DNA of 64,000 bases from Sphaerodactylus townsendi (Eukaryota), in the NCBI RefSeq assembly GCF_021028975.2, contig NC_059426.1, positions 19,406,001 through 19,470,000 of the forward strand. Reading direction: 5' to 3'. The position numbers and the translations under genes were made by a program. The notes below the pieces were generated by a model that made no database searches, had not been told where the DNA came from, and worked only from the letters and a program-made list of their open reading frames with translations. This document shows, piece after piece, positions 35,001 through 38,000 of the stretch. How positions within the stretch are numbered: position 1 is the stretch's first letter; each line of letters starts with the position of its first letter.

Positions 35001-38000
35001 GTGGGTATACATTTAACAAAATAACTTAAAAATTTGTCTTGATGCTGAATACGGACTGTTGTTTGAAATGTGTTCATATGATAAAGCATTGGACAACAAT
35101 TTTATACAACATAGTACAAAATCTAGTTGAAATATTTTGGGCTGGCTGGAAACAGTCCCATCCAGAAAGCTAGGTGTCTTGCGGTGGTGCCAGCCCCTCC
35201 CCCCACCCCCCAACTTCCCAGTGGCATGGGGAGACTTAAAATGCCGAAAAGCCTCCCTACTATTAGGAAGCCTCTGTTGAACTGAATAGACTTATGCCAC
35301 CTTTTTTGATGGTGTAAGACAGTTGTACTGGCTGCTGACGCAACAGGGCGAATGGCTGGGAGAGAGTCAGCTACAATTGGCTCCTCCCCCAGGCTTTCTC
35401 TATGGCAGCAGGGATGTTGGCACAGCATCCCATGCTAGTGTCCTAACACTAGAGAGGGTGGTGGTGGCGGCTCTACACCGACAAATTCACTCTTCCGCTG
35501 GGGCAAGTACCCCGGGGAGGGCAAATCTACTAGCACAGCGGCCTATTGCTTCCACTGGCAGATTTGAAGCCCCTCCCCATGTTACATACGTAATGTAACA
35601 ATAACTACAGTTATTGAAATAAGTCATTCCTGCATTGAGAAGGGCTCCTAGCTGCTATTCAATTTTTTAAGGTAGTAATATTTCACACCCTAACCAGTTG
35701 GTCCTTCTTTTGTCTGTAGATTCTCAGTAGACGATGTCCCTTTCTCTGTCCCGGCCACTTCTGAAACGGCTGACCTCAGTAACGTTATTAACAAACTCCT
35801 GGAAGCGAAAAATGGTACGTACATTTTGAGGAAATGGTTTGCAAGATTTTGTCAGCATACACTGGATTTCAGACATATTTGGATTTATTCTTCATGCTAG
35901 TTCAAATGGAAACTGCATTTTCTGCTTGTATGCTGAAGGTAGGCATCTAATATTTCTCAATTGTTTGTCTCTAGAAAGCCACAAATATGTGGAATTTGAC
36001 TTCCTTGTCAAGGGTCAGTTCTTGCGAATGCCCCTGGTCAAACACATGGAAACTGAAAATATCTCTACGGTAAGTCATTTGATGATTTAATATATAAAGT
36101 TTTTGACACTGATGTTAGGGTAGCAAGGACTACCACTACTGTTGCACTCTGGCTGTAACTAATATTTCAAATACGTATATTTATGAGTTTATATACATGA
36201 GTTTATATCATTGTTCATATTTTTTATATATTTCATTGGTTGTAAATACAATCATTTCTTGTCGACTACATCCAACCAGTAAGTTCAACTTATTTTTAAC
36301 AATCATAACAAATAAATTCAGGGTCATCCGTATTAATTCAGGTAGGTATTTAGTTCATACTCTCCCATCAATTCAGCATCCTTAAGGTAAGTCTGTATGT
36401 ATTCAATGATAAGTCCAAAATTGTGCACAGACAGAAGTCCAAATTCTTTTAAACACTTTTAAACACAAGGAGGAAAACGCATTGCGCCTAATCCGCGTTT
36501 TTCGATGGCTTCATCAGCCTCACTCATAAATATACGTATTTGAAATATTAGTTACAGCCAGAGTGCAACAGTAGTGGTAGTTCTATTATTATTAATATTG
36601 ACTGTTGCACCCCCTTTTCTTATGTGAGGGTAGCAAGGACGAAATGGTGTCTTTCCTTGCTGGGAAACTCTCTTAGACCAAGGGCTCTCTGGGAAGCAAT
36701 ACAACTGGGGATCTCTTGAGAACATCTTGACTGACTCATGGGGAAGGCGTCCTTCTTGCCCAGTATGAGGAACAATAATAGAGTGACAAGGCAGTAACCC
36801 TAGAAAATACCGTACAACCAACTATGCAGGGCCCATTCAGTTTAGCACATAGCGGAGAGATTCAGAGAAATAACTAGTACAAAGCAAAGCCAAATATGAC
36901 CTTATAATAAGTCTTTATTATAACAGAGAGGAGGCGGAAATGGGTTTTTTAAAATCAGAACCATATTAAATATAGTCTTCCATCAAGTGTAAGGTAGTAG
37001 CTCTGAACATCCATGACAAATAGGTGGTCTGGCCCAAAATGGATCGTCCTTTGTCCAGAAGGGATTAATTTTGTAAGGATGGTTCCATGTGGAATGCCCA
37101 AAAGAGAAGAAAAATAGGGCCAAGCAACGTGTCACCAAACCGAAACAGTGAAGAAGATGCCAGGTGACTGGTGACAGCTTTACTGTCATATAAGGCCCCT
37201 ACGTGTTTCGCTGTTTTAGCTTCATCAGGGGAATTAGAGTTCTTTGACTCAGTTGCTGTGGAAGAGTTCATCAAACAAAACTCTGATCTCCCTGATGAGG
37301 CTTAAGCAGTGAAACGCGTAGGAACTAGACATGATAATAAAGCTGACCTCAGTCACCTTGAATCTTTTTACTTTTTCCATATGGAAATGAATGGGTCATC
37401 CCAAAGTAACTCCCCAGGGATCCAAAATCCCAGATTCTCCTGGTGGTGCTCTTGCCCTAGTAAGGTTTTAGGGTTTCTGTCATATGGCATTAGAAAAATG
37501 GCACTTAATTGAATCATATTTACTCAGATGTAAGTTCCACTGAACTCTTTTGAATTGTCTGCCAAGCAAGTGTGCTTATGATGGCGATTCTACCTTGAAT
37601 TTTTGAATAGATAAACTTATACTGGTTTAAATAAATGCCACAGAAACATTGCAGTTCCATCTGCAAGCTGCTGAAGTTAGTTAGAGAGTTCCAGTTATTT
37701 GTCCTGGATAAAACTTGCAAAGAAGTTATTAAGCATGTATCCTTGAGATCCCTAGAGATGTAAAATTCCTGGAACCTTTGAGGGCCCAAGAAGACAATTC
37801 CAGAAAAAAAGGAAATTTTAGGGGAAATTGAAATACATGCAGTAATACTAACATGCAGTATTAACAGCTTTTTCTTACTGATTTAACAGTATAACATATA
37901 TCATTTTAGCATGTAAACTTGCACTATTTGGCATATATATGGAATTTTAAAGTGTCTGTGTATTTGTTTTCTATTTAAAAAAATCAAGTATGCCCAGCAC

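Follow-up and report, generated by a model that had tools for sequence, protein, structure and literature searches.

Introduction

Ambisense viroid-like circular RNAs carry ribozymes of both polarities in a rod-like fold. Hammerheads of opposite polarity also occur as genomic DNA. In Schistosoma, pairs of minimal hammerheads are located on opposite strands, 100-700 bp apart (PMC4209133). The same paper places the end of the Penelope intron at the 5' side of helix I and notes that a different ribozyme serves the spliced RNA; the parts of it that we consulted mention no spliced genomic copies. In Penelope of D. virilis, the intron is located 46 bp downstream of the transcription start within the terminal repeat, and the available description indicates that most transcripts are spliced (Schostak 2008, PMC2377424).

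As far as the published accounts describe them, insertions of EN+ Penelope-like elements (PLEs) contain a 5'-truncated copy, an inverted partner and a tail of 30-40 bp on one side (PMC8557442, PMC3846280, PMC8969392). Antisense templates have been proposed for the head-to-head junctions (Discussion of PMC3846280). In vitro, PAc (Poseidon, Anolis carolinensis) introduces nicks in both strands and extends them, the tail being set by the two adjacent sites at which its RT starts (Frangieh 2024, PMC11167929). According to the sections of that report available to us, its insertion needs no ribozyme cleavage, and the inverted junction was not reconstituted. A further related group is the animal non-LTR retrozymes, which, as summarized in bioRxiv 10.64898/2026.07.22.740005, are short, non-coding, hammerhead-bearing and derived from pLTRs. 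The family studied here shares these properties. However, retrozymes are organized as head-to-tail tandem arrays, whereas the copies of this family are dispersed, single or head-to-head.

Here we describe a decayed 280-bp insert in a host intron within the window, the whole 64-kb stretch of DNA that was analyzed. The insert is very probably composed of two intron-less PLE 3' ends joined head-to-head. They were likely produced from spliced sense RNA by the enzymes of the element, and the hammerheads in them are likely inert passengers. The opposite-strand hammerhead pair and the head-to-head PLE architecture are already published biology. Abundant spliced PLE retrocopies were not reported in the literature that we searched.

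Results

Structure of the insert

The insert spans 37095-37374 (280 bp), larger than the fold-back first noted at 37151..37368, and is bounded by a 12-bp target-site duplication. Its features and the host exon upstream are as follows.

35975..36069, plus strand: host exon upstream; Pfam NLE 47-68, joined to the next exon by 26 RNA reads
37083..37094, plus strand: target-site duplication, left copy; 11/12 identical to 37375-37386
37095..37141 (~47 nt), minus strand: PLE 'tail', a 3' extension on the minus arm only; common to other family copies
37142..37245, minus strand: minus arm, a 5'-truncated intron-less pLTR copy; arm model positions 38-194, classed as spliced
37196..37232, minus strand: minimal type I hammerhead motif, minus copy; core intact, helix III palindrome lost
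37245..37246, no strand: head-to-head junction of the two copies; gap of -1 between the arm matches
37246..37285, plus strand: plus arm, starting near position 8 of the 46-47 positions in exon 1 of the pLTR transcript; exon-1 profile 8-47
37286..37374, plus strand: plus arm, exon 2 joined directly to exon 1; junction 37285/37286, intron absent, no tail
37289..37323, plus strand: minimal type I hammerhead motif, plus copy; core intact, helix III ACGCGU, G.U at 10.1-11.1
37375..37386, plus strand: target-site duplication, right copy; a perfect palindrome

The minus arm contains the last 11 nt of exon 1, the splice junction at 37235/37234 and then exon 2. Both window arms are classed as spliced, that is, they have no intron. 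An AATAAA is found at 37336-37341 in exon 2 of the plus arm. The target-site duplication is palindromic, and other duplications in the family are not. The original prediction described two inverted arms of about 97 bp at roughly 75% identity (37151-37247 and 37271-37368). The inversion is real, with arms of 91 nt at 76% identity. The 23 nt that seem to form a loop between the arms do not: the two copies meet at 37245/37246, and these bases are the 5' portion of the plus copy, with no counterpart in the minus copy.

All six hammerhead motif coordinates given in the original prediction are exact. The plus copy has CUGAUGA at 37292-37298, GAAA at 37311-37314 and GUA at 37318-37320; in the minus copy, the same elements are found at 37228-37222, 37209-37206 and 37202-37200. 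The type I core pattern matches twice on the two strands of the 64 kb, at these two motifs only. In 100 Markov-simulated windows the mean is 0.1 and the maximum is 1. The folding energy of the fold-back is -113.5 kcal/mol, compared to -57.7 +/- 4.0 in 60 shuffles (z ~ -14). Neither the core-pattern count nor the fold is due to chance. An Rfam search, suggested at the outset as a check on the motifs, returned 26 matches up to E 5 in 35000-39500, and no hammerhead model is among them.

Both copies had been described as having full cores with stems I and II still paired. The cores are indeed intact; the helices are minimal, and each copy is flawed. The plus copy has a helix I of 3 bp and the minus copy one of 4 bp; helix II is 3 bp. 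The plus copy has a G.U at 10.1-11.1, and its helix III, ACGCGU, is still palindromic. In the minus copy G10.1-C11.1 is intact and helix III, ACACGU, is non-palindromic. Minimal type I hammerheads of metazoan PLEs, as presented by Cervera and de la Pena (2014, PMC4209133), share the short helix I, an extra base between 9 and 10.1, G10.1-C11.1 and the palindromic 15.2-16.2. They differ from the window motifs in helix II, which is only 3 bp here.

The host exons upstream of the insert match the Pfam NLE domain (profile 15-42 and 47-68), and 26 RNA reads of a related organism splice the exon ending at 36069 to the exon at ~39290. We take the host gene to be WDR12 and exon 35975..36069 to be its exon 3. 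The same host intron also contains a 510-bp high-copy element at 36117-36627, whose terminal inverted repeats are 63 bp long (98%) and whose ends carry a 14-bp repeat. It is missing at the orthologous site of organisms B and C and is likely a recent MITE-like insertion. A further repeat at 38677-39163 has nested inverted arms (38766-38942) and sub-threshold matches to miRNA families; it is likely a DNA-transposon relic. Elsewhere in the window, long C2H2 zinc-finger open frames are found on the minus strand at 52869-55313.

The insert belongs to a dispersed PLE family

A genome-wide copy search had been proposed together with the original prediction, and it reveals a dispersed family. In the 1.81-Gb genome the fold-back search gave at least 61 matches, with 40 of 73 candidates scored. 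Family copies are ~20% diverged from the commonest letter in each column. An exact 18-mer has 31 matches at 28 loci and is carried by 11 of 85 examined arms, giving a rough estimate of ~240 arms or more.

Seven long copies run in the 5' direction, on the same strand, into PLE-type thumb/linker/GIY-YIG sequence (tblastn E 1e-3 to 8e-13). Their translations contain a CxxC-type linker, an IYAIKCSCNxIYVGK-like nuclease start and a GLN end, and a GHFKCG-x-x-x-C-like linker motif is present in the translations of L112-L115. Bridging and reference ORFs match RVT_1 (E 1.4e-5) and GIY-YIG (E 3.6e-4), just under the Pfam cut-offs; the decayed protein fragments of the family itself gave no GIY-YIG or RT match in Pfam. 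Judged from these sequences, the window insert derives from the 3' end of an EN+ PLE, probably of the Neptune type, which is assigned from the CxxC linker alone; the RT core is decayed in the copies examined. A Zn-finger-like CxxC linker is also described in Nematis (PMC8557442). The GIY-YIG/RT linkage, the one-sided tail and the target-site duplication bear out one of the two alternatives originally offered, an inverted Penelope terminal repeat.

No intact parent element was found, and none of 8 extended family loci contains a full-length copy in the partial-tandem arrangement pLTR-ORF-pLTR. An RT/GIY-YIG fragment located 1 kb from a family copy (L020/L031) was considered as the parent and rejected. 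Neither this fragment nor 20 related ORF loci have an arm 3' of the ORF, so the fragment is a neighbor from another family. Separately, L049 contains a 776-codon open PLE frame at 1714-4041 (+) and a 100% identical 501-bp inverted partner, which indicates a recently active family.

Further exact patterns were also searched. One of them, with all three CpGs free to vary, has 0 copies. The intron-acceptor pattern has 2 matches, which are duplicates of unrelated sequence, and its count was not used; L129 and L130 are one and the same unrelated sequence, present on two contigs. The spliced-junction pattern has 9 matches, two of which are one duplicated insertion. The L007 insertion recurs ~32 kb away (C8) as L126, an inverted duplicate that shares its duplication.

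Head-to-head pairs are rebuilt at most insertions

Of 91 loci examined, 2 proved unrelated; a profile of the intron-less arm was applied to the 89 that belong to the family, and 2 duplicate clusters were dropped. They contain 29 head-to-head pairs and 0 tail-to-tail pairs. The tail is found on one arm in 24 pairs, on neither in 4 and on both in 1, and the 3' ends form two peaks. The start of the truncated arm varies from model position 3 to 110, and many junctions are located at the 5' end near a short palindrome. Both ribozyme regions are present in 16 of the 29 pairs; one is missing in the other 13. Flanking target-site repeats are clear in 6/40 family elements and in 0/40 shifted controls; two of the 40 are duplicates, leaving 5/38 independent elements. 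Self-comparisons and profile scans revealed no head-to-tail tandem units in the family.

A known Penelope terminal repeat with an inversion unique to this locus had been named as an outcome against the original prediction. The inversion is not unique: in the 18-mer sample, chosen regardless of structure, 20 of 28 loci are fold-backs. The mirror arrangement is rebuilt at most insertions, and is neither a fixed unit nor unique to the window locus. Published EN+ PLE insertions, as far as their descriptions extend, have in common with this family the head-to-head 3' ends, variable truncation, a tail on one arm and a target-site duplication of 11-17 bp. In contrast to them, the copies of this family are intron-less and have a fixed 5' end and a tail of ~47 nt.

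The mirror arm could have formed in two ways. The two arms may be separate cDNAs joined at their far ends, as detailed in the Discussion. Alternatively, an element of the same PLE origin may have made it by self-priming, one cDNA (or antisense RNA, PMC3846280) folding back and being copied. The similarity of the two arms speaks for self-priming. Both arms of a pair share their class, 10 pairs being spliced/spliced and 4 intron/intron; the single mixed call is an artefact. The arms also agree at two subfamily columns in 12/13 and 11/13 pairs, where ~6 are expected. The palindrome near many junctions is consistent with it as well. However, the fold-back of a single sense-templated cDNA cannot, by simple logic, place a tail on the truncated arm, and this is where the tail is found in the window and in 10 of 12 asymmetric pairs (p 0.039). 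We regard self-priming as a possible, although doubtful, source of the second arm.

Many family copies lack a GT-AG intron

In the long form of the family, ~200 AT-rich bases separate an exon-like CTG from ATCCC and end 6 nt ahead of the core. The sequence of the short form runs directly across the site of this ~200-nt GT-AG intron. Donors are GT in 10 of 16, GC in 3, AT in 2 and another dinucleotide in 1, and pyrimidine-rich YAG acceptors are found in 15/25. The donor is located 46-47 nt after the sharp 5' end of the short copies. The microhomology at the exon junction is only 1 nt.

In 66 loci, obtained with queries biased to one form or the other, the 101 arms comprise 40 spliced, 25 intron-bearing and 36 truncated or unclassed. 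Extension upstream of the sharp 5' end is found in 0/40 spliced arms, compared to 13/16 intron copies that reach exon 1. The 18-mer sample is unbiased in this respect, and its 28 loci divide into 20 spliced, 3 containing exon 1 without the intron, 3 with the intron and 2 that are too short. Two linked haplotypes span both classes: TT is found in 11 spliced and 11 intron-bearing copies, AG in 11 and 6. In a tree of 48 arms the spliced label is unclustered, with 15 changes compared to 15.9 when shuffled; the tree is star-like with 2 supported branches, and thus has little power and cannot alone date the intron loss. We argue from these sequence patterns that the spliced copies probably reflect templates of spliced sense RNA. 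The missing intron in the window copy departs from the intron retention described for PLEs.

Two further families contain spliced copies

Family B is young, with copies 95-99% identical to each other. The best 30 loci of 44 matches were used (40 of 426 candidates scored), which gave 25 independent loci. Three GT-AG introns, 125, ~91 and 103 nt long, interrupt its repeat, and there are natural copies that have none of them. Removal of three introns together excludes ordinary deletion. At the last intron, 14 of the 25 loci are spliced, 10 retain the intron and 1 is unclassed. No spliced locus reaches upstream of the start (0/14), compared to 4/10 intron-retaining loci. Spliced loci are head-to-head in 12 of 14, and no locus mixes classes. 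In L154, a spliced copy, exon 2 continues directly at a site ~20 nt into exon 3, much as alternative splicing of the RNA would leave it. Family B (L047 / L150-L179) also has a ribozyme-like motif, with UUGACAA replacing CUGANGA and a long helix III, which starts the last exon right after the third intron. The U3-A8 pair variant, as in UUGACAA, was reported in Schistosoma (PMC4209133).

Family C was sampled as the best 30 of 41 matches, representing 28 loci. Splicing is seen in 5 of them and the intron in 19; the other 4 are unclassed. Upstream reach is again confined to the intron-keeping loci (6/19, compared to 0/5 spliced). Its target-site duplications are plain and 12-17 bp long. Exact intron absence thus occurs in three PLE families of the same genome.

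These families bear on whether the intron-less form is instead a separate non-autonomous element, which lost the intron once, by splicing or deletion, and spread by an internal promoter. In the window family the intron-less copies outnumber the intron-bearing ones, 20 vs 3 of 28 loci, as such an element would. A copy beginning at the transcription start could keep an internal promoter, as the description of D. virilis Penelope suggests (PMC2377424). However, a single loss does not account for both haplotypes being found in both classes, for the absence of tree clustering or for junction microhomology of only 1 nt. It also leaves unexplained the same pattern in two further families, with three introns lost in one and a different exon boundary used in L154. 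We consider a single loss improbable and prefer repeated copying of spliced RNA.

Family B also affects the question of self-priming. By our reading, 11 of 13 cases here have the tail at the longer arm, as a fold-back cDNA would have it. A general rule that the tail is located on the truncated arm, which holds in the window family, fails in family B and was dropped. If self-priming started from an antisense template, splicing would not be expected, yet 12 of 14 spliced family B loci are head-to-head. Given this tail position in family B, and given that the two arms of a pair are always of one class and mostly of one haplotype, fold-back is still a serious contender for some of the insertions. 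Separately primed cDNAs remain our preferred origin of the window arms.

The ribozymes are decayed and probably buried in the hairpin

Among 69 arms, the three CpG pairs of the hammerhead motif keep the commonest letter in only 45-60%, the changes being C>T and G>A. The catalytic G12 is A in 27/69 arms. The core is intact in 10/69 arms, and none of those 10 has both G10.1-C11.1 and the palindrome. Outside the window, cores are intact in 8/67 arms, which gives ~0.014 for an intact pair before ascertainment. Two intact cores together are therefore uncommon, but the locus was flagged because of them. Cores kept no better than their flanks had been named as a sign against the ribozymes. Conservation of the core columns in fact slightly exceeds that of the 3' flank (0.85 vs 0.80, p 0.06; without G12, p 0.017), a difference that linked subfamily variants in the flank can explain.

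According to the original prediction, the antisense partner would sequester the plus copy, which lies in the sense pre-mRNA. Folding calculations agree with this: the predicted pairing probability of helices I and II is 0 in the fold-back, and for the isolated plus arm it is 0 as well. Of the orthologous contigs, that of organism C has C37317T, which breaks the helix III palindrome of the plus copy, and that of organism B lacks 2 nt of the minus-copy helix I at 37196. The modeled pairing and these changes suggest that the window hammerheads are likely inert passengers.

The presence of the insert at the orthologous site in organisms B and C, together with two cores whose joint survival is uncommon in the family, might instead indicate co-option, with WDR12 retaining the hairpin or the plus-strand ribozyme as a pre-mRNA regulator. 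G.U-compatible differences between the arms, 10 on the sense strand vs 5 on the other, point in the same direction. However, this skew is inside the spread of 10 other loci, and the arm-to-arm identity of 0.74 equals the family mean (0.746, 13 pairs). The palindrome-breaking change and the helix I deletion in the relatives, and the zero pairing probability even in the plus arm alone, also argue against retention. Co-option is very unlikely, and inert passengers are the reading that we keep.

Two hammerheads of opposite polarity that pair in a rod-like fold also resemble an endogenized viroid-like circular RNA or a dedicated ambisense-ribozyme replicon, the other alternative originally offered. 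The resemblance does not extend further. The pairing is whole-arm self-complementarity, which abolishes both ribozyme folds. The unit belongs to a retrotransposon with an ORF, a spliceosomal intron, a tail and target-site duplications, and it decays at CpGs. Its junction differs among copies, and nearly half of the pairs (13/29) are without one ribozyme region, whereas ambisense viroid-like RNAs are circular units with a fixed ribozyme pairing. Tandem or circularly permuted units were absent from the family loci in self-comparisons and profile scans. Weakly, reads are also absent: two RNA runs of organism C, sampled at 6% and 19% and with unstated library selection, cover the exons but have a depth of 0 over 37099-37700 and no pile of ends, although the neighboring unique intron is likewise at 0. 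The ORF linkage and the variable junction refute this alternative, to which we assign almost no credence.

Discussion

We propose the following origin for the insert. The pLTR promoter in the 3' repeat of the parent would start transcription ~46 nt ahead of the intron donor, and splicing of the RNA would follow; we are highly confident of this step. The endonuclease would then nick both target strands ~12 bp apart. Each 3' end would prime cDNA at one of two neighboring RNA start sites, giving one tailed arm, and the cDNAs would be joined at their far ends. Taken together, we favor these latter steps slightly. In the WDR12 pre-mRNA, the antisense of the minus arm would be made first and would pair with the plus arm in a ~100-bp hairpin. 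It is predicted, with a confidence as high as for the first step, that no ribozyme would form and that the intron would be spliced normally.

Parts of this scheme resemble described elements. The intron position near the transcription start and helix I is shared with D. virilis Penelope (PMC2377424, PMC4209133). The D. virilis intron is 75 nt and is described as retained in transposition (PMC2377424), whereas that of the window family is ~200 nt and the majority of copies are spliced. PAc belongs to another clade; its report describes no CxxC linker, and its ribozyme overlaps the ORF start (PMC11167929).

On a broader scale, Neptune-type PLEs probably retrotranspose short, fully spliced sense RNAs routinely from the promoter in the 3' terminal repeat. 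This would produce processed mini-elements, arranged head-to-head, that can outnumber the intron-bearing copies. An antisense template predicts intron retention. For these families, the spliced head-to-head copies contradict this model, unless the antisense template came from an intron-less master.

PLE insertion generates opposite-strand hammerhead pairs as a side effect, and scans of animal genomes for viroid-like ambisense ribozymes will meet them often. The spliced head-to-head copies in three families provide a direct genomic test of template polarity, and favor the selection explanation put forward in PMC2377424, as far as it is set out there. If our reading is correct, intron retention in PLEs would reflect which copies propagate and not the mode of copying, and head-to-head junctions would no longer call for an antisense template.
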